Both the position numbers and the translations under genes were made by a program. Below, piece by piece: positions 52,829 through 62,568 of a DNA stretch of 64,000 nucleotides. The DNA is from Escherichia coli (GTDB lineage: Bacteria; Pseudomonadota; Gammaproteobacteria; Enterobacterales; Enterobacteriaceae). The DNA is taken from assembly GCF_022846255.1 (NCBI RefSeq), contig NZ_AP025682.1, one strand, 5' to 3'. The first letter of the stretch is position 1, and every line of letters starts with the position of its first letter. Below the pieces are notes generated by a model. The model worked only from the letters and a program-made list of their open reading frames with translations, did no database searches and was not told the origin of the DNA.

Positions 52829-53713
52829 ATGCGTTACTCACTTGAAGCGTTAAGTACATTTGTTGAAGTGGTTTCCTGTGGCTCCTTTTCTGCTGCGGCA
52901 CGAAGATTACGTAAAAGTCAGTCCGCAGTCAGTACGTCAATTGCCAATCTTGAGGTCGATCTTGGTATATCATTATTCGATCGCTCTTCGCGAGAACCTG
53001 TGCTGACAGAGGAAGGAAAGAAAGTATTGAGTTACGTTCATGCGATTTTATCAGCCAGTGAACGTCTTGAGGAGGTGGCGGTTTCGCTTGCCGGAGAGAC
53101 TGAAGCTCGTCTGACGTTTGTGCTTTCCGATACCCTACACCCTGACTTATTAGAAGACATCATGGTGCAGTTTGATAGTCAGTTTCCACATACTGAGTTA
53201 GAGGTTTTAATTGGTGAGGATGTCGATGTCATCGATCTTTTGCAAAAAGAACGAGCGCAGATCGGCTTAATTGAGTCTCGGGAACACTACCCCACCGATA
53301 TTGGCTCAACCCGTTTACCGATGCAAGCGTGGATGGGCATTTATGTTTCGGCGTCACATCCACTGTCTGCAGAAAAAACAATCCAGCGGGAACAACTTCA
53401 TTCATGGCGAGAACTTCGTCTTAATACTTATATCGATAACCGGGAGATGATTGCCCGTGGACCGGTTTGGTCTGCACCTAACTATTTGTTGTTACTCAGT
53501 ATGGCCGTACAGGGATTTGGCTGGTGCTCTCTGCCCTGTGCTCTGGTTGAGGAGTTTGCAACAGAAAAACCGCTGGTTCAGCTCGACGTACCTGGCTGGC
53601 CAAAGGCAATTTCTATCGATCTGCTTTGGAATAAAAAATCGCCACCAGGCGCGGCTGGAAATTGGCTTAAGCATCATTTACAGCATATCAATGCCCCAAA
53701 TAGTCGAACTTAG
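52829..53713 (+). CDS. LysR-family transcriptional regulator (AceR-like), divergent from the PACE gene
   Basis: 294-aa ORF with N-terminal LysR HTH (LEALSTFVEVVSCGSFSAAARRLRKSQSAVSTSIANLE); 103-bp divergent intergenic region. Confidence 0.8.
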   Translation: MRYSLEALSTFVEVVSCGSFSAAARRLRKSQSAVSTSIANLEVDLGISLFDRSSREPVLTEEGKKVLSYVHAILSASERLEEVAVSLAGETEARLTFVLSDTLHPDLLEDIMVQFDSQFPHTELEVLIGEDVDVIDLLQKERAQIGLIESREHYPTDIGSTRLPMQAWMGIYVSASHPLSAEKTIQREQLHSWRELRLNTYIDNREMIARGPVWSAPNYLLLLSMAVQGFGWCSLPCALVEEFATEKPLVQLDVPGWPKAISIDLLWNKKSPPGAAGNWLKHHLQHINAPNSRT

Positions 53714-53834
53714 ATTAGTTAAAATATGGAATCCTGAAATAATCTCTGTTGATATGTGGAGCCATCTTCCAGGCTCCCACCTAAATCATGTTAGCAGTTC
53801 CATTTTTTTGATGATTTCCGCATGAGCATCATCG

Positions 53835-53918
53835 TTATCCCCAGCGACAAATTGAATACAAAACCAGTGCTACCGCCATTGCAATTCCTACCGTTGCGAA
53901 TGCTTCAGGCCAGCTCAT
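53835..53918 (-). CDS. hypothetical 27-aa hydrophobic peptide, start overlaps the stop of the upstream gene
   Basis: ATGA overlap with the 214-aa gene; encodes MSWPEAFATVGIAMAVALVLYSICRWG (single predicted TM helix). Confidence 0.25.
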   Translation of the reverse strand: MSWPEAFATVGIAMAVALVLYSICRWG

Positions 53919-54559
53919 TGATTCACCTCCTGCGGCGGTTCTGGTAGTGGTATCCAGAACAAGGCGTTCCCTAACCACGATAAAGTGCCGTCGCTCAACT
54001 CCACGTATTCCCCTTGCACCTGTCCTGCCATATACTCACCGTGCTTTGAATAAATTAAAATCCAATCATCTTGAGCGGGCATTCGCTCACTACAGCTTAT
54101 CCAACCACCCGGAGTTACCGGAGAGTTGCCGCGTTCTTTAATGTGCAAGCGAGGCTCACCATCTTTTGGTTCAGGCCACTGGCGCTCCATGTTGATCTTC
54201 AATTTATCTTCCATAGCAGCGGTAATTTCAGCATCGCTGATGCCAGCACGGCGCTGTGCATCCCACAACAGGAACTGCATATCAGCCCACTCGCTGAGAT
54301 CGTCTGGTTCGGCTGCGGCTTCCAGAGCCTCTTTTGAGAGGTGTTTCAGTGGACCAATGGGGCCAACGCAGCCAAATGTGGAGTCAGACCATTTGGCATG
54401 CTCGTGGCGAATCTGTTCGCGTTCCAGTGAGGCGAGAGCGATTTTAAATGCTGTAAGCATGTGTGCTTGATCGTTGTCGAGTCCGAATGGCATTTCATCT
54501 CGTGCTGACTCAATACTGGTAATCGTATTTTGTAGCCATTCTTTGGTAAAAGTGCTCAT
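53915..54559 (-). CDS. prophage protein with MazG-like nucleotide pyrophosphohydrolase N-terminal domain (DUF550-like) and DUF551-like C-terminal domain
   Basis: 214-aa ORF; N-terminal acidic helices (EALEAAAEPDDLSEWADMQFLLWDAQRR) and C-terminal DUF551-like segment; common in enterobacterial prophages. Confidence 0.55.
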   Translation of the reverse strand: MSTFTKEWLQNTITSIESARDEMPFGLDNDQAHMLTAFKIALASLEREQIRHEHAKWSDSTFGCVGPIGPLKHLSKEALEAAAEPDDLSEWADMQFLLWDAQRRAGISDAEITAAMEDKLKINMERQWPEPKDGEPRLHIKERGNSPVTPGGWISCSERMPAQDDWILIYSKHGEYMAGQVQGEYVELSDGTLSWLGNALFWIPLPEPPQEVNQ

Positions 54560-54927
54560 CGTAAAATATCCTCTATACTGGTAAGTCCTTCATTATTTAG
54601 CCAGATCATGGCGTCATCCGGCAACTTGCTGTCTGGTTTGGCGTTTTTGAGAGAGGAACTCAGTCGCTTAATCCACATTGTCACCTCAGTAATGCGCCTG
54701 TCTTTGCCTTCCAGCTCAACACGCAGCTTCCCTACTGTTAGCGCAATATCCTCGTTCTCCTGGTCGCGGCGTTTGATGTATTGCTGGTTTCTTTCCCGTT
54801 CATCCAGCAGTTCCAGCACAATCGATGGTGTTATCAATTTATGGAAAAGGTCTGCGTCAAATCCCCAGTCGTCATGCATTGCCTGCTCTGCCGCTTCACG
54901 CAGTGCCTGAGAGTTAATTTCGCTCAC
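54556..54927 (-). CDS. Ead/Ea22-like prophage early protein (123 aa)
   Basis: Acidic coiled-coil protein; start overlaps the stop of the upstream zinc-finger gene. Confidence 0.5.
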   Translation of the reverse strand: MSEINSQALREAAEQAMHDDWGFDADLFHKLITPSIVLELLDERERNQQYIKRRDQENEDIALTVGKLRVELEGKDRRITEVTMWIKRLSSSLKNAKPDSKLPDDAMIWLNNEGLTSIEDILR

Positions 54928-55145
54928 TTCGAACCTCTCTGTTTACTGATAAGCTCCAGATCTTCCTGGCAACTTGCACAAGTCCGACAACCCTGAACGG
55001 CCAGGCGTCTTCGCTCATCTATGGGATCGCCACACTCACAACAATGAGTGGCAGATACAGCCTGGTGGTTCAGACGACGCATTTTTATTGCTGTATTGCG
55101 CTGTAATTCTTCGATTTCTGATGCTGAATCAATGATGTCTGCCAT
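54924..55145 (-). CDS. TraR/DksA-family C4 zinc-finger protein (lambda Orf73-like)
   Basis: 73-aa ORF with CxxC-N17-CxxC (CCECG...CRTCASC). Confidence 0.65.
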   Translation of the reverse strand: MADIIDSASEIEELQRNTAIKMRRLNHQAVSATHCCECGDPIDERRRLAVQGCRTCASCQEDLELISKQRGSK

Positions 55146-55243
55146 CTTCCATTAATCCCTGAATTGTTGGTTAATACGCTTGAGGGTGAATGCGAACAAT
55201 AAAAAAGGAGCCTGTAGCTCCCTGATGATTTTGCTTTTCATGT

Positions 55244-55525
55244 TCACCGTTCCTTAAAGACGCCATTTAACATGCCGATCGCCAGGCTTAAATGAGTCGG
55301 TGTGAATCCCATCAGCGTTACCGTTTCGCGGTGCTTCTTCAGTACGCTACGGCAAATGTCATCGACGTTTTTATCCGGAAACTGCTGTCTGGCATTTTTG
55401 ATTTCAGAATTAGCCTGACGGGCAATGCTGCGAAGGGCGTTTTCTTGCTGAGGTGTCATTGAACAAGTCCCATGTCGGCAAGCATAAGCACACAGAATTT
55501 GAAGCCCGCTGCCAGAAAAATGCAT
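55244..55525 (-). CDS. hypothetical lambda-type early-left protein (start may be the internal Met at 55459, giving 71 aa)
   Basis: Track ORF in the block between the TraR-like gene and exo. Confidence 0.4.
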   Translation of the reverse strand: MHFSGSGLQILCAYACRHGTCSMTPQQENALRSIARQANSEIKNARQQFPDKNVDDICRSVLKKHRETVTLMGFTPTHLSLAIGMLNGVFKER

Positions 55526-55535
55526 TCAGTGGTTG

Positions 55536-55727
55536 TCATACCTGGTCTCTCTCATCTGCTTCTGCTTTCGCCACCATCATTTCCAGCTTTTGTGAAAGGG
55601 ATGTGGCTAACGTATGAAATTCTTCGTCTGTTTCTACTGGTATTGGCACAAACCTGACTCCAATTTGAGCAAGGCTATGTGCCATCTCAATACTCGTTCT
55701 TAACTTAACAGGAGATGCTTTGTGCAT
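55536..55727 (-). CDS. hypothetical lambda-type early-left protein (63 aa)
   Basis: Track ORF; position equivalent to lambda orf63. Confidence 0.4.
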   Translation of the reverse strand: MHKASPVKLRTSIEMAHSLAQIGVRFVPIPVETDEEFHTLATSLSQKLEMMVAKAEADERDQV

Positions 55728-55888
55728 ATCGCCTCCCGTTTATTATTTATCTCCTCAGCCAGCCGCTGGGCTTTCAGTGGATTTTGGATAACAGAAAGGC
55801 CGGGAAATACCCAGCCTCGCTTTGTAACGGAGTAGACGAAAGTGATCGCACCTACCCGGATATTATCGTGAGGATGCGTCATCGCCAT
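55700..55888 (-). CDS. hypothetical lambda-type early-left protein (62 aa)
   Basis: Track ORF directly after exo; position equivalent to lambda orf60a. Confidence 0.35.
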
Positions 55889-56559: not shown

Positions 56560-57341
56560 GCTGCCACCTTCTGCTCAGTGGCTTTCTGTTTCAGGAATCC
56601 AAGAGCTTTCACTGCTTCGGCCTGTGTCAGTTCTGACGATGCGCGAATGTCGCGGCGAAATATCTGGGAACAGAGCGGCAATAAGTCGTCATCCCATGTT
56701 TTATCCAGGGCAATCAGCAGAGTGTTAATCTCCTGCATGGTTTCATCGTTAACCGGAGTGATGTCGCGTTCCGGCTGACGTTCTGCAGTGTATGCGGTAT
56801 TTTCGACAATGCGCTCGGCTTCATCCTTGTCATAGATACCAGCAAATCCGAAGGCCAGACGGGCACACTGAATCATGGCTTTATGCCGTAACATCCGTTT
56901 GGGATGCGACTGCCACGGTCCGGTGATTTCTCTGCCTTCGCGGGTTTTGAATGGTTCGCGGCGGCATTCATCCATCCACTCGGTAACGCAGATAGGATGA
57001 TTGCGGTCTTTGCGGTAAATCCGGCATGTGCAGGATTCGTTGTCCTGTTCAAAGTCCATGCCGTCAAACTGCTGGTTTTCGTTGATGATGCGGGACCAGC
57101 CATCAACGCCCACCACCGGAACGATGCCGTTCTGCTTATCAGGGAAGGCGTAAATTTCTTTCGTCCACGGATTAAGGCCGTATTGGTTGGCGACGATCAG
57201 CAATGCGATGAACTGCGCATCGCTGGCATCGCCTTTAAATGCTGTCTGGCGAAGAGTGGTGATCAGTTCCTGTGGGTCGACAGAATCCATGCCGACACGT
57301 TCAGCCAGCTTCCCAGCCAGCGTTGCGAGTGCTGTACTCAT
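56556..57341 (-). CDS. bet: lambda-type single-strand annealing protein (Red-beta)
   Basis: 261-aa ORF near-identical to lambda Bet; start overlaps exo. Confidence 0.93.
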
Positions 57342-57346
57342 CCGTT

Positions 57347-57643
57347 TTATACCTCTAAATCAATATCAACCTGGTGGTGAGCAATGGTTTCAACCATGTA
57401 CCGGATGTGTTCTGCCATGCGCTCCTGAAACTCAACATCGTCATCAAACGCACGGGTAATGGCTTTTTTGCTGGCCCCGTGACGTTGCAAATGATCGATG
57501 CAGAGCGATTCAAACAAATGCTGGGGCAGACCCTTTTCCAGGTCGTCTGCCAGTTCTGCCTCTTTCTCTTCACAGGCGATCTGCTGGTAGTGACGCGCCC
57601 AGCTCTGAGCCTCAAGACGATCCTGAATGTAATAAGCGTTCAT
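57347..57643 (-). CDS. gam: RecBCD inhibitor Gam
   Basis: 98-aa ORF near-identical to lambda GamS ([21 protein letters not shown]...). Confidence 0.9.
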
Positions 57644-57718
57644 GGCTGAACTCCTGAAAATGGCTGTGAAAATATCGCCCGCGAAATGCCAGGCTGATTA
57701 GGAAAACAGGAAAGGGGA

Positions 57719-58009
57719 TTAGTGATTCAGGCCGTTACCGCGTCCGTCGAGAAAAACTTCCACGAGCAAATCACGGGTATAAGTGCGCTCGATGCCGCGA
57801 TGCAGATATAGCCGTCCGCGTAAATTAGCTGATGCAGTCCAGGTACCATCTTTGTGTTTGACCAGCATTCCTGGCATGACCGCACCGCGATTAACGGTCT
57901 GCGTTCCGTAATGTTGATGAACCATAAAAACTCCTGCCCGTAAGCTGGGCTGCTGAACATATAGAGACTTCTGCGCGTATTCAGGCGGTGGATGGCCGCC
58001 GGTTGTCAT
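57719..58009 (-). CDS. hypothetical protein (96 aa), first ORF of the leftward early operon
   Basis: Track ORF preceded by a GAGG ribosome-binding site; matches nothing I recognise from lambda (not N, Kil or CIII). Confidence 0.45.
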
Positions 58010-58059
58010 AACTAAGCCGCCTCGTTGAAGCGACTAAGGTATGAAATGTTGAGTTGATT

Positions 58060-58210
58060 TCAGCTGGTCACACCGACGTTCACGCGTCCGTTTCACCCCT
58101 CGCACTCCCCGAAGCCTGCTGAAATTCAAACTGCGGATCTAAGCGGTCATCGCAACGGTGAATCAGGTGGTTGCCGTATCGTTGTGTTGTTGCGATGAAC
58201 TTATTTAAAA
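58060..58210 (-). ncRNA. structured 5' leader of the leftward early transcript (two long inverted repeats); candidate cis-acting regulatory RNA
   Basis: 9-bp perfect inverted repeat CATCGCAAC/GTTGCGATG (58159-58167 / 58200-58208) and 8-bp inverted repeat ATTTCAGC/GCTGAAAT (58068-58075 / 58129-58136), between the predicted pL and the 96-aa ORF. Confidence 0.3.
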
Positions 58211-58213
58211 CTA

Positions 58214-58256
58214 TAGTTGTTTTATCGTCAACAACAAAAGTTGTTTTATTGGTTGT
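58214..58256 (-). promoter_or_regulatory. candidate pL with overlapping operators (-35 TTGACG, 17-bp spacer, -10 TTAAAT; palindromes AACAAC-N4-GTTGTT and TAAAAC-N7-GTTTTA)
   Basis: Minus-strand hexamers at 58237-58242 and 58214-58219; this cassette is almost a copy of the pR cassette at 59252-59287. Confidence 0.5.
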
Positions 58257-58383
58257 TTTAGATATAACTGGTTGTATTTAGGATGGATTTATTTTGTGAC
58301 TTGAATCGCATAGCGATAACTGAAGCGAGGTTATGGTGGTTTTTTTAACGGTGTGTGTGATGAGGGGAGGGCAAAAGAAAACC

Positions 58384-58410
58384 CGGCACGGTGACCGGGA
58401 TTCTTACGCC
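58384..58410 (-). terminator. rho-independent terminator downstream of the repressor gene
   Basis: Minus-strand hairpin cccggtcaccgtgccggg followed by TTTTCTTTT. Confidence 0.6.
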
Positions 58411-58520
58411 GTTAGGTAAAGATATTATTGCGGTGGCTTAATATTACTACCTAGAGCAAAGATAGGAATTAGTTCTTTACTGAATGAGCACAATGCCCAG
58501 TTGATAATTTTTAATTGGTA

Positions 58521-59210
58521 CTACCCATGCTTCCTATATGTCTGCGGCATGCTCCCAATAACCTTACCGAAGATGAACACCCGGTTCATCTCGTCTTTCT
58601 CGATCGGGTCCCACGGTGAGTAGCTTTTGTTATCAGAGATGACCAGCAGCTTATCCTTCATCATTTGCAGGCGCTTTACATGGGCTGTGTCGTCGTACAG
58701 AAACGCATAGATACCATCACCGTCGAAAGATTTAACTGTGATATCAACGAACAGCAGATCACCTGGTTCGATCGTTCCTGACATGCTGTCACCACGCACG
58801 TTAATGATGCGGATATTTTCCGCCTTCCTACCATCGAACATGTGACGAGCATCGTCAAACGAGTACTCAACCGAGCGTAGAACTTCTACAAACTCACGGT
58901 TGATGACTCCCGGCCCAGCACTGACTTCTATATCAAGAACGTCAATCTTAAAGTATTTGGAATGGCTGACAGTTGATAGTATTGGTTGCACTGTACTGTC
59001 TGACATATTTCCAACGCCAGAAGATAACCATTCTGCGCGCACACCCAAAGCGTTCGCGATCTCCACGATTTTAGTTGTTTGATTAGCTTTCCCTGTTTCG
59101 ATTTTCTGAATAGCAGCCTGGCTAACCCCGACCAAATCCCCAAGCGCCTTTTGTGTAAGGCCTCGCGCTAATCTGGCTTCTTTAAGTCTTTCTGAGAGTG
59201 TTGTTTTCAT
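58521..59210 (-). CDS. cI: CI-like prophage repressor (XRE-type HTH plus S24 LexA-like peptidase domain)
   Basis: 229 aa from the Met at 59210 (track ORF extends to 59273); HTH LTQKALGDLVGVSQAAIQKIE; C-terminal GDSM...K autocleavage-type domain; start lacks a Shine-Dalgarno, consistent with a leaderless pRM-type mRNA. Confidence 0.85.
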   Translation of the reverse strand: MKTTLSERLKEARLARGLTQKALGDLVGVSQAAIQKIETGKANQTTKIVEIANALGVRAEWLSSGVGNMSDSTVQPILSTVSHSKYFKIDVLDIEVSAGPGVINREFVEVLRSVEYSFDDARHMFDGRKAENIRIINVRGDSMSGTIEPGDLLFVDITVKSFDGDGIYAFLYDDTAHVKRLQMMKDKLLVISDNKSYSPWDPIEKDEMNRVFIFGKVIGSMPQTYRKHG

Positions 59211-59216
59211 AGTCCA

Positions 59217-59287
59217 AATGTACAACCAAGGTTTTATTCCATCAAACGAAAATGGTTGTTGACTAAAAAACAACCATAGTTTTAATC
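59217..59287. promoter_or_regulatory. cI-cro divergent control region: candidate pRM (minus; -35 TTGATG, -10 TACATT), pR (plus; -35 TTGACT, -10 TTAATC) and operator palindrome ATGGTTGTT-N8-AACAACCAT
   Basis: 26-bp palindrome 59252..59277 overlapping the pR -35; pRM -10 ends 7 bp before the cI ATG. Confidence 0.5.
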
Positions 59288-59315
59288 TTGATTCAAATTA
59301 ACCACGGAGGTTGTT

Positions 59316-59546
59316 ATGAACCCAGCTATCAAAACAGCGATCAATATCGTTGGTTCACAAAAGAAACTGGGCGCTGCTTGCGAAGTTTCACAGCAGGCCG
59401 TCTATAAGTGGCTTCACAACAAAGCAAAGGTATCCCCTGAACATGTCGGCAGCATTGTTACGGCTACTGGTGGAGTAGTGAAGGCATACCAGATTCGCCC
59501 GGATCTTCCGAAGTTGTTTCCACACACCGAAAAGAACGCAGCTTAA
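59316..59546 (+). CDS. cro: Cro-like repressor (76 aa)
   Basis: Small HTH protein divergent from cI with a GGAGG ribosome-binding site. Confidence 0.7.
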   Translation: MNPAIKTAINIVGSQKKLGAACEVSQQAVYKWLHNKAKVSPEHVGSIVTATGGVVKAYQIRPDLPKLFPHTEKNAA

Positions 59547-59615
59547 ATTTCCATTTCACGCTCTTTAACAATAAGCAATCAACTTAACAGTCAATTCAAA
59601 CTAAAGGAGTCAATT

Positions 59616-60155
59616 ATGCAACCACTTACATACCAACAGACTAGCGGATTTAGCCCGACTGCGGTGATAAATCGTTCTCAAACAAAACAGGCGCCAGGCC
59701 ACGAAAAAATCCGTGATGCCGTTCGCGCCTGGTCGGCTGCAGATAATCAGGATGTTGTTGCCGCACTCATTGTGAATGAGTATCGGGAGCAGGGCGGCGG
59801 CACCATCGATTTCCCTGATGATGTCAGCCGTGCACGCCAGAAGCTGTTCCGCTTCCTCGATAACAAATTCGATTCTGAAAAATACCGAAATAACGTGCGT
59901 GAACTGACCCCGGCAATTCTGGCGGTACTACCGCTGGAATATCGCGGCCACCTGGTTGAGCAGGATAGCTTCATGGCTCGGTTGGCTGAAATGGATAAGG
60001 AACTCAGTGAGGCAAAGCAGGCGGTCATTCTCAACGCACCACGCCACCAGAAACTGAAGGAAATGAGTGAAGGTATTGTGTCGATGTTTCGTGTGGACCC
60101 GGATCTGGCTGGTCCATTAATGGCGATGGTTACCACCATGCTGGGGGCAATATGA
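59616..60155 (+). CDS. CII-like phage regulatory protein (CP76-type, 179 aa)
   Basis: Position between cro and O; family assignment is from memory and uncertain. Confidence 0.45.
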   Translation: MQPLTYQQTSGFSPTAVINRSQTKQAPGHEKIRDAVRAWSAADNQDVVAALIVNEYREQGGGTIDFPDDVSRARQKLFRFLDNKFDSEKYRNNVRELTPAILAVLPLEYRGHLVEQDSFMARLAEMDKELSEAKQAVILNAPRHQKLKEMSEGIVSMFRVDPDLAGPLMAMVTTMLGAI

Positions 60156-61171
60156 CAGGTTCAGAAATGGCGAAAGCCGGTCTGCGGGAACAGAGCCGAC
60201 TTTCAGGTGCAAATCGTAACGCACTCATTGCGGAAGGAATTATGGCAAACACTGCTGAGATATTCAATTTTCCAGTGCCGGATGAGGCACAAAAGGAGCC
60301 GCGCGTGGCAGATCTCGATGATGGTTATACGCGCATTGCAAATGAGTTGCTGGAAGCTGTGATGCTGGCCGGATTAACACAGCACCAGCTTCTGGTCTTC
60401 CTGGCTGTCATGCGCAAAACATATGGCTTTAATAAAAAACTGGATTGGGTGAGCAACGAGCAACTGTCCGAATTGACCGGGATATTGCCGCACAAGTGTT
60501 CTGCTGCAAAAAGTGTTCTGGTAAAGCGTGGGATTTTGATTCAGAGCGGGCGGAATATCGGTATTAATAATGTGGTCAGTGAATGGGCAACATTACCCGA
60601 ATCAGGTAAGAAAAATAAAGTTTACCTGAAAGAGGTAAATTTACCTGAATCAGGTAAGAAAAGTTTACCCAAATCAGGTAAAGGCGTTTACCCGAATCAG
60701 GTAAACACAAAAGACAAACTAACAAAAGACAATATAAAACCTTTTTCGTCAGAGAATTCTGGCGAATCCTCTGACCAACCAGAAAACGATCTTCCTGTGG
60801 TGAAACCAGATGCTGCAATTCAGAGCGGCAGCAAGTGGGGGACAGCAGAAGACCTGACCGCCGCAGAGTGGATGTTTGACATGGTGAAGACCATCGCGCC
60901 ATCAGCCAGAAAACCGAATTTTGCAGGGTGGGCTAACGATATCCGCCTGATGCGTGAACGTGACGGACGTAACCACCGCGACATGTGCGTGCTGTTCCGC
61001 TGGGCATGCCAGGACAACTTCTGGTCCGGTAACGTGCTGAGTCCGGCCAAACTCCGCGACAAGTGGACCCAGCTCGAAATCAACCGAAACAAGCAACAGG
61101 CTGGCGTGACAGCCGGCAAACCAAAACTCGACCTGACGAACACTGACTGGATTTACGGGGTGGATTTATGA
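60152..61171 (+). CDS. O: replication initiator O (divergent N-terminal iteron-binding domain, lambda-like C-terminus)
   Basis: 339-aa ORF; C-terminal 120 aa near-identical to lambda O; internal iterons at 60594-60706. Confidence 0.88.
   Translation: MTGSEMAKAGLREQSRLSGANRNALIAEGIMANTAEIFNFPVPDEAQKEPRVADLDDGYTRIANELLEAVMLAGLTQHQLLVFLAVMRKTYGFNKKLDWVSNEQLSELTGILPHKCSAAKSVLVKRGILIQSGRNIGINNVVSEWATLPESGKKNKVYLKEVNLPESGKKSLPKSGKGVYPNQVNTKDKLTKDNIKPFSSENSGESSDQPENDLPVVKPDAAIQSGSKWGTAEDLTAAEWMFDMVKTIAPSARKPNFAGWANDIRLMRERDGRNHRDMCVLFRWACQDNFWSGNVLSPAKLRDKWTQLEINRNKQQAGVTAGKPKLDLTNTDWIYGVDL
60594..60706 (+). repeat. ori iterons inside the O gene (four or five copies of TTACC[CT][GA]AATCAGGTAA[AG] with 23-24 bp periodicity) followed by an A-rich tract
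   Basis: Direct repeats read at 60594, 60621 (degenerate), 60641, 60664 and 60688. Confidence 0.8.
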
Positions 61172-62168: not shown

Positions 62169-62235
62169 TGAAACAGATGAGTTGAGTTCAAACTGTAGTA
62201 CAATTCTCTCCAGTTTGAACAGGAAAGAATATGCT

Positions 62236-62568
62236 ATGAATCCTTATATTTATCTTGGTGGTGCAATACTTGCAGAGGTCATTGGTACAACCTTAATGAA
62301 GTTTTCAGAAGGTTTTACACGGTTATGGCCATCTGTTGGTACAATTATTTGTTATTGTGCATCATTCTGGTTATTAGCTCAGACGCTGGCTTATATTCCT
62401 ACAGGGATTGCTTATGCTATCTGGTCAGGAGTCGGTATTGTCCTGATTAGCTTACTATCATGGGGATTTTTCGGCCAACGGCTGGACCTGCCAGCTATTA
62501 TAGGCATGATGTTGATTTGTGCCGGTGTGTTGGTTATTAATTTATTTTCACGAAGCACACCACATTAA
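62236..62568 (+). CDS. emrE: SMR-family multidrug efflux protein EmrE (110 aa)
   Basis: MNPYIYLGGAILAEVIGTTLMKFSEGF... with the conserved Glu14; track ORF 62182..62568 trimmed to this Met. Confidence 0.9.
   Translation: MNPYIYLGGAILAEVIGTTLMKFSEGFTRLWPSVGTIICYCASFWLLAQTLAYIPTGIAYAIWSGVGIVLISLLSWGFFGQRLDLPAIIGMMLICAGVLVINLFSRSTPH

Follow-up and report, generated by a model that had tools for sequence, protein, structure and literature searches.

Predicted operators and promoters on both sides of the cI gene in a widespread lambdoid immunity region of Escherichia coli

A phage repressor gene in Escherichia coli is flanked by two intergenic stretches that are nearly the same sequence in opposite orientation. 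What are these stretches, and which parts of them would the repressor recognise? An initial annotation of the 64,000-nucleotide stretch of DNA analysed here (the window) took them for near-duplicate pL and pR cassettes, whose inverted repeats would act as operators and define the immunity specificity of the phage. We consider it highly probable that they are the left (OL/pL) and right (OR/pR) control regions within a lambdoid immunity module, with predicted CI-bound 14-bp dyads, three at OR and at least two at OL.

Two look-alike cassettes in a lambdoid early region

There is a single copy of the pL-side 34-mer, TGTTGTTGACGATAAAACAACTATAGTTTTAAAT (58203-58236, minus strand), and a single copy of the pR-side 34-mer, GGTTGTTGACTAAAAAACAACCATAGTTTTAATC (59254-59287, plus strand). 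The two share 28 of 34 positions, and a repeat search extends the likeness to 45 nt (58205-58249 versus 59241-59285, 80% complementarity). Between 58100 and 59400 the best 34-nt inverted match scores 29, more than any of 100 dinucleotide shuffles (mean 22.8, sd 1.2, maximum 27). The reported near-identity over about 34 bp on either side of the repressor gene was thus borne out. The left cassette begins at 58203, so that the start at 58214 given previously falls 11 nt inside it. The inverted repeats described for both cassettes held in part: GTTGTT...AACAAC is found in pL and pR alike, and GTTTTA is also present in both, but its partner TAAAAC exists at pL only. At pR the sequence reads TAAAAAAC, leaving only AAAAC common to the two cassettes.

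The genes and the terminator around the cassettes are as follows.

57719-58009, minus strand: kil, first gene of the pL operon (PHROG 294; annotation of related phages)
58372-58399, minus strand: intrinsic terminator predicted to end the cI transcript before OL (terminator scan; fold -13.2 kcal/mol)
58521-59210, minus strand: cI repressor, 229 aa (Pfam HTH_3 and Peptidase_S24; PHROG 'transcriptional repressor/CI-like')
59316-59546, plus strand: cro analogue of the YdaS family, 76 aa (Pfam PF15943, 4.1e-17; YdaS/P22_Cro)
59616-60155, plus strand: cII analogue of the YdaT family (Pfam PF06254, 2.1e-29; PHROG 163, CII-like activator)

The left side continues on the minus strand from kil to gam, bet and exo, and O, P and ren lie to the right of the cII analogue on the plus strand. 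No N-like ORF was found between pL and kil; N/nut antitermination beyond pL and pR is a trait of lambda in the strict sense that not every lambdoid phage has. The region has the features of a lambdoid immunity region, namely a divergent pair of HTH + S24 repressor and cro, operator dyads over pR and PRM, and a look-alike set at pL. We conclude that it is the early region, or immunity module, of a lambdoid prophage. The placement of the two cassettes fits such a region and both contain conserved TTGAC -35 elements, in line with their earlier designation as pL/OL and pR/OR.

The cI translation shows an Ala-Gly site (SAGPG), the serine of GDSM and the lysine of VKRL; with a full S24 domain, the repressor should be SOS-inducible. 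Its HTH and that of Cro are identical at 11 of 24 residues, and the Shine-Dalgarno sequence of cro, GGAGG, is located at 59306-59310. Three GenBank relatives are annotated with a TTG-initiated cI of 250 aa (58521-59273). We rejected this longer form, since it would traverse OR and the alignment with the 434 repressor begins only at residue 5 when cI is read from the ATG.

Predicted operators, promoters and the cI start

The motif ACAAC-N4-GTTKT (ACAACNNNNGTTKT) has five exact matches at four sites, one of them palindromic, where 0.21 would be expected by chance in the 64-kb window. All matches are confined to the two intergenic control cassettes, an enrichment of more than 20-fold. The recognition units are most likely these 14-bp dyads. 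The palindromic repeats of the initial annotation are therefore retained, but not GTTGTT-N8-AACAAC as the unit of recognition: the GTTGTT/AACAAC palindrome is most likely composed of the inner, right arm of O2 and the inner, left arm of O1. The predicted elements are listed below in order of position; the relatives named in the entries, including the Klebsiella phage ST101-KPC2phi6.1, are described in the next section.

58203-58208, minus strand: candidate pL -10, TTAAAT (17-nt spacer; position matches TATTAT of 4A7 relative to the shared leader)
58207-58220, minus-strand ACAACTATAGTTTT: predicted OL1, 14-bp dyad in the pL spacer/-10 (exact motif match)
58226-58231, minus strand: pL -35, TTGACG (from the sequence; TTGACT in the Klebsiella phage; rare variants only in 110 loci)
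58231-58244, ACAACAAAAGTTGT: predicted OL2, perfect dyad abutting the pL -35 (exact motif match)
58262-58275, ATATAACTGGTTGT: weak, degenerate candidate OL3 (GTTGT arm at 58271-75 alone conserved)
59217-59222, minus strand: candidate PRM -10, TACATT (17-nt spacer from TTGATG; invariant in 126 loci)
59222-59235, ACAACCAAGGTTTT: predicted OR3, inside the PRM spacer/-10 (exact motif match)
59240-59245, minus strand: candidate PRM -35, TTGATG, directly abutting OR2 (TTGCCG, with TTG kept, in the Klebsiella phage)
59246-59259, ACGAAAATGGTTGT: predicted OR2, between the PRM -35 and pR -35 (24-bp spacing; conserved in the Klebsiella phage)
59259-59264, plus strand: pR -35, TTGACT (read from the sequence; kept in all relatives)
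59265-59270, plus strand: A6 tract between the pR -35 and OR1, one A more than in nearly all relatives
59270-59283, ACAACCATAGTTTT: predicted OR1, in the pR spacer/-10 (exact motif match)
59283-59288, plus strand: candidate pR -10, TAATCT (TAnnnT retained as TATTCT in the Klebsiella phage)

The centre of OR2 lies exactly 24 bp from those of OR1 and OR3, and the same 24 bp separates the centres of OL1 and OL2. OR2 combines one consensus arm with a weak arm that has two mismatches to the motif. In both cassettes the TTGAC hexamer (pR, 59259-64; pL, 58231..58226) is positioned between O2 and O1. OL has two firm dyads; a full third operator is not evident in its sequence, and the OL3 candidate lies 31 bp from OL2. 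Near OL there is also a second, orphan GGTTGT at 58251-56, which is polymorphic. A direct-repeat model of the P2 C-like kind, built on the GGTTGTTTT repeats at OL, was discarded: this extra copy is polymorphic in 15 of 110 loci, and the dyad arms account for all invariant positions.

The -10 hexamers are of poor quality and can be placed only to within about 1 nt: TTAAAT of pL is without the conserved A at position 2, and TTAATC (59282-87) is an alternative for pR. The pL mosaic boundary, 58195/58196, falls about 7 nt downstream of TTAAAT. TATAGT or CATAGT as -10 elements would need TTGTTG (pL) or TGGTTG (pR) as -35, and the conserved TTGAC hexamers were preferred. A generic sigma-70 scan called neither pL nor pR nor PRM; its lone match, at 58190-58217 on the plus strand, was dropped as it is below the chance expectation of 3.1. 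The 181-nt pL leader contains one 10-bp stem and has no significant overall structure (z = 0.34). A distant blastn search with this leader gave no HK022 match, and an Rfam scan of 57000-60500 (E <= 1) returned nothing, thus no known nut, put or sRNA family.

On the minus strand, TACATT of PRM is followed by 6 nt (TGGACT) and then by the cI ATG at 59210. The Klebsiella phage has the equivalent geometry (TAAATT-GAAAAG-ATG), and lambda PRM has the same layout of -10, 6 nt and ATG. Among the 126 loci these 6 nt vary (AGTCC, AGATC, AGTTC, AGACC), with loss of the only GGA able to act as a Shine-Dalgarno sequence for cI; a conserved Shine-Dalgarno sequence is absent from the cI start in the related loci and in the Klebsiella phage. 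In this conserved, lambda-like geometry the ATG falls where +1 would be expected relative to the PRM -10, which supports in silico the earlier proposal of a leaderless cI mRNA, but not that of a weak pRM.

From the observed sequence architecture, the way it is conserved and the way it co-varies with the regulators, we infer how binding, occupancy order, cooperativity and transcription starts would combine in this switch. A LexA-like CI, consisting of a 434-type HTH and an S24 autopeptidase, would bind the 14-bp dyads as dimers. Occupation of O1 and O2 would occlude pR (TTGACT...TAATCT) and pL (TTGACG...TTAAAT). The divergent PRM (TTGATG-17-TACATT), with its -35 abutting OR2, would give a cI mRNA that begins at the AUG or immediately beside it, and OR3 inside PRM would allow negative autoregulation as well as repression by Cro. 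The YdaS-family Cro has a similar recognition helix and would use the same sites. The two cassettes probably look alike because in each a -35 hexamer is joined to an O2-O1 operator pair and the constraints are the same.

Conservation among relatives and competing readings

The same 1.6 kb is present in coliphages PhiR34_1 and Turner with 99.6-99.7% identity, and the same immunity module in PhiR26_1, PhiR5_1, PhiR47_2 and IdasGreatGrand; all six are temperate coliphages sequenced recently. This OR was also detected in 1518 of the 5426 complete E. coli genomes (~28%). A further 126 IMG/VR loci with this OR were gathered by one pattern scan, whose pattern fixed 59252-59287, which leaves only the positions beyond that stretch free of sampling bias. 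The alignments cover 110 loci over OL and 126 over OR, and none of the 30 arm positions in OL1, OL2 and OR3 is substituted in them. The variable positions are of three kinds: those in the central 4 bp of the dyads (58212, 58213, 58215, 58237, 59229), those in the spacers that separate operators from hexamers (58224-25, 58248-50, 59238-39), and 59212-14, in the stretch from the PRM -10 to the cI ATG. One locus has lost 24 bp (58219-58242), precisely the length of one operator period.

The diverged Klebsiella phage ST101-KPC2phi6.1 encodes a cI N-terminal domain that is 61% identical to that of the window, with an identical cI recognition helix (GVSQAAIQKIETG) and an identical Cro recognition helix/HTH. 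It keeps all five dyads in the same places, OR2 being identical. Between this phage and the window the dyad arms agree at 50 of 50 positions and the other aligned positions at 123 of 183 (Fisher p = 6.6e-8).

In the heteroimmune relatives 4A7 and PhiR30_1, three segments match the window: the pL leader as far as 58195, the C-terminal domain of cI (58467-58973) and the region of the cI terminator. They differ from it in OL, in the N-terminal domain of cI, in OR and in cro, all of which are replaced, and their repeats belong to a different, ATTGCTATT-like family. Codons 1-79 of cI (58974-59210) are thus immunity-specific, with a mosaic boundary at 58973/58974. The recognition helices of CI and Cro co-vary, with VSQAAIQK/VSQQAVYK in the window versus VAQPTIWR/VAQPTVWR in 4A7 and PhiR30_1. 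At the level of sequence, this joint replacement is the signature expected of an immunity-specificity module. Since both operator regions are exchanged together with cro and the N-terminal domain of cI, the elements appear to track immunity specificity, which agrees with the role assigned to the operators in the initial annotation.

The A tract between the pR -35 and OR1 differs in length among these sequences. The version with one A fewer (TTGACTAAAAACAACC) is found in all six sequenced phages, in 125 of 126 IMG/VR loci and in the Klebsiella phage. In the sequence background of the window, A6 was seen in none of the 5426 complete genomes and in one of the 126 IMG/VR loci. On another background (ATCCC) it is present in 15 genomes, ten of them named O104:H4 and five listed without a serotype; E. 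coli 55989, a close relative of O104:H4, has the A5 allele. This distribution makes the change from A5 to A6 look like a recurrent slippage event. With A6 the pR spacer is 18 rather than 17 nt long and the OR1-OR2 distance 24 rather than 23 bp. The extra A also makes pR of the window resemble pL more than it does in most relatives.

How, then, should the repeats be divided into binding sites? The long palindrome noticed initially, of the GGTTGTT-N8-AACCAAC type (20-26 bp), could be one large site per promoter, lying over the -35 and spacer, to which one repressor dimer or tetramer would bind. It has 9-bp arms at pR (ATGGTTGTT-N8-AACAACCAT) and a 6-bp-arm version at pL, and both arms are invariant in relatives. 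However, the arms are separated by N7 at pR and N8 at pL in 125 of 126 loci, in six of six phages and in the Klebsiella phage, which is hard to reconcile with a single rigid dimer site: a 1-bp change would be disruptive within one dimer site and tolerable in a spacer between two operators. A single long site would also leave PRM/OR3 without a site despite the perfect 14-bp dyad there, and would leave the conservation of the outer arms (58207-11, 58240-44, 59246-50, 59279-83) unexplained. As the homologous 434 domain moreover binds 14-bp sites, we regard this division as very unlikely. A shifted 17-bp register, AAAAC-N7-GTTTT, which corresponds to the TAAAAC/GTTTTA repeat of the initial annotation, or the use of different registers of the AAAACAAC element by CI and Cro, is in our view improbable. 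Lambda-type operators are indeed 17 bp long, and AMAAC-N7-GTTKT matches OL1, OR1 and OL2 perfectly, while at OR2 each arm deviates at one position. Yet it fits poorly at OR3 (TGTAC...GTTTT), and relatives carry substitutions in its inner arms (58219-23, 58243-47), namely at 58221, 58246 and 58247, but none in the arms of the 14-bp register; the closest structural homologue, too, uses 14-bp sites.

The cassettes might also be without regulatory meaning: an AT-rich repeat that arose by chance, the product of a recent duplication or of gene conversion, or a bidirectional terminator hairpin. The terminator scan does flag 59252-59277 on both strands, where the fold reaches -10 to -11 kcal/mol (z = -2.8 to -3.4), but the stem has only three G-C pairs in nine and lies upstream of the pR start. 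That the enriched motif is restricted to the two control regions, that conservation across diverged phages is specific to the arms, and that the whole set co-varies with the recognition helices of repressor and Cro make a meaningless repeat extremely improbable. We therefore retain the 14-bp dyads as the predicted operators in the comparisons below.

Relation to phage 434, lambda and CP-933P

The closest solved structures to the repressor are the N-terminal domain of phage 434 repressor and an engineered derivative (E = 1.8e-9 to 4.5e-9, ungapped). The cI N-terminal domain aligns without gaps to 434 R1-69 over residues 5-68, with 38% identity (E = 4.5e-9). The residue aligned with Gln28 is shared, whereas the base-contacting Q29, S30 and Q33 of 434 correspond to A32, A33 and K36 in the window; the ACAA half-site common to both may thus be coincidental. 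The 434 record OL657226.1 contains six 14-bp operators, all of the form ACAA-N6-TTGT save for one non-consensus arm of OR3 (ACAG). The sites of the window are likewise 14-bp dyads starting with ACAA, which all five have on one strand; TTGT occupies the other arm only at OL2, a perfect match to the 434 pattern, and is replaced by TTTT or TCGT elsewhere. Comparison of the half-sites with known immunity groups, as suggested initially, therefore gives a mixed result: they begin as those of 434 do, but position 5 is invariably C in the window (ACAAC) and some other base in each of the twelve 434 half-sites, from which a different immunity specificity is to be expected. The recognition helix also differs (SQAAIQKIET/QAAIQK versus TQQSIEQLEN/QQSIEQ), which excludes membership of the imm434 group. 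These alignments indicate a 434-like mechanism with a different predicted specificity, outside imm434.

The layout shows the same mixture. As in the 434 annotation, the PRM -35 abuts OR2 and OR3 fills the PRM spacer; CI and Cro have similar recognition helices in both systems, and OL2 and OL3 are 31 bp apart, OL3 being only a candidate in the window. Operator centres in 434 are spaced by 22 and 23 bp at OR and by 23 and 31 bp at OL, so that its 22-23 bp contrast with 24 (or 23) bp in the window. The pR -35 lies between OR2 and OR1 in the window, as in lambda, but between OR2 and OR3 in the 434 annotation. In addition, an RBS and an upstream start are annotated for 434 cI in place of the leaderless geometry, and the window differs in having a YdaS-family Cro and neither an N gene nor nut sites.

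Lambda has the same divergent cI and cro, three OR operators between pR and PRM, an operator pair in a near-duplicate cassette at pL, and a cargo slot and a terminator that separate cI from OL. It also has the leaderless geometry of cI (-10, 6 nt, AUG), an S24 autocleavage domain for SOS induction and a 24-bp centre spacing, with both 23 and 24 bp occurring among its operators. Unlike lambda, the window encodes a repressor of the HTH_3/434-like fold family with 14-bp rather than 17-bp operators, it has neither rexAB nor the N antiterminator, and proteins of the YdaS and YdaT families serve as its Cro and CII analogues.

These analogues are shared with CP-933P/Rac (PaaR2 or RacR, YdaS, YdaT), in which they are also divergent from the repressor. 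For the YdaS/YdaT-type region of CP-933P a leaderless repressor was shown experimentally, and several intergenic repeats are bound by both regulators, with pL hexamers identical to those of pR (PMC8630535). The CP-933P repeats are four in number and 18 bp long, with the consensus GTTTAGTAA (PMC8630535). By contrast, the window uses predicted 14-bp dyads rather than 18-bp repeats, its repressor has a full S24 domain, and toxin-antitoxin genes are not fused to the repressor operon.

A literature search by operator strings and phage names returned no paper containing these operator sequences. As far as the literature searched shows, the operators of this widespread immunity type are thus apparently undescribed. 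From its sequence, the locus is a new and widespread immunity type with an ordinary, functional-looking promoter-operator architecture of a known kind.

Two further possibilities, which we rate as unlikely, would reach beyond the single prophage. Because of the shared ACAA...TTGT core and the perfect 434 pattern of OL2, repressors and Cros of 434-type phages and of this family could cross-bind; if so, 434-type phages and this prophage family could affect each other's immunity or induction. The pR A tract, for its part, may be a recurrent slip-strand site. In that case A5 to A6 would have arisen independently in the window and in the O104:H4 outbreak clone, and the changed pR spacer and OR1-OR2 spacing would tune or cripple lytic induction.

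The architecture is that of the textbook, and the understanding of lambdoid switches is unchanged by it. What the predicted operator map adds, with its five 14-bp dyads, promoters, leaderless cI and boundaries, is that immunity grouping can be predicted from sequence.

Operator variants and the pR spacer

Among the related loci, one (L109, from IMG/VR) carries a 24-bp deletion, which aligns to window positions 58219-58242. The deletion leaves one operator, a fusion of OL1 with OL2, and takes out the pL -35 element; it is a natural loss of one operator period.

At pR, an A6 tract occupies window positions 59265-59270, between the -35 element and OR1. The tract is A5 in all six sequenced phages, in 125 of the 126 IMG/VR loci and in the Klebsiella relative ST101-KPC2phi6.1. 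On another background, A6 is fixed in 15 genomes; 10 of these carry the name O104:H4, and the listing gives no serotype for the remaining five. The A6 allele is absent from strain 55989. This distribution suggests recurrent slippage in the tract, which would alter the spacer of pR as well as the distance between OR1 and OR2.

A further operator-like 14-mer, ACCACGGAGGTTGT, lies at window positions 59301-59314, 31 bp from the OR1 centre, with one mismatch and overlapping the cro Shine-Dalgarno sequence. The Klebsiella phage keeps it as ACTACGGAGGTTGT. This could be a fourth site, or merely reflect conservation of the ribosome-binding site.

The cI start codon and the adjoining slot

GenBank records of related loci differ in the start of cI, giving 756 nt from TTG versus 690 nt from ATG. 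The slot that separates the cI stop from the cI terminator/OL (window 58400-58520) is empty here and occupied in several relatives.

Features in related loci (coordinates within each record)
L001 3022-3777; L004 4000-4755; L005 3522-4277: cI annotated as 756 nt, from TTG
L002; L003; L006; L128 (RefSeq) 1796-2485: cI annotated as 690 nt, from ATG
L002 2907-3287; L003 2560-3988; L004 2304-3877; L129 748-2164: occupied slot

The TTG-started frame reads through OR; the ATG start agrees both with the alignment to 434 and with the map of operators, and the longer annotation is therefore probably wrong. The slot cargo varies, comprising annotated GevA/GevT, HipA/HipD-like genes, a lipoprotein and an ASCH-domain gene pair. 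In lambda, rexAB occupies this position, and the slot therefore resembles a hotspot for defence genes or morons.

The pL leader and the extent of the prophage

No N gene is present between pL and kil (window 58010-58195, minus strand). The 186-nt pL leader has 95-99% identity to its counterparts in heteroimmune phages. It begins with a perfect 10-bp stem (58189-98 paired with 58147-56). Inside the leader lies an ORF of 31 aa (58034-58129) that is rich in arginine, with the motif KRTRERR. The leader has no Rfam match, and its fold as a whole does not reach significance; it may hold an element that acts in cis in antitermination or processing.

On the left, the host LysR-type regulator genes stop at 53713, and small phage ORFs then fill only some 2 kb before exo, including the following.

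53915-54559: dATP/dGTP pyrophosphohydrolase-DUF551 gene

No ORF of integrase size occurs in 53713-55880, and therefore this side of the prophage may have undergone truncation or rearrangement. Beyond ren, an SMR-family (EmrE-like) efflux gene lies at 62182-62568, as is also annotated in phage PhiR47_2. DLP12 of E. coli K-12 has the same arrangement, ren followed by an SMR-family efflux gene; the prophage described here would then be a more complete relative of DLP12.
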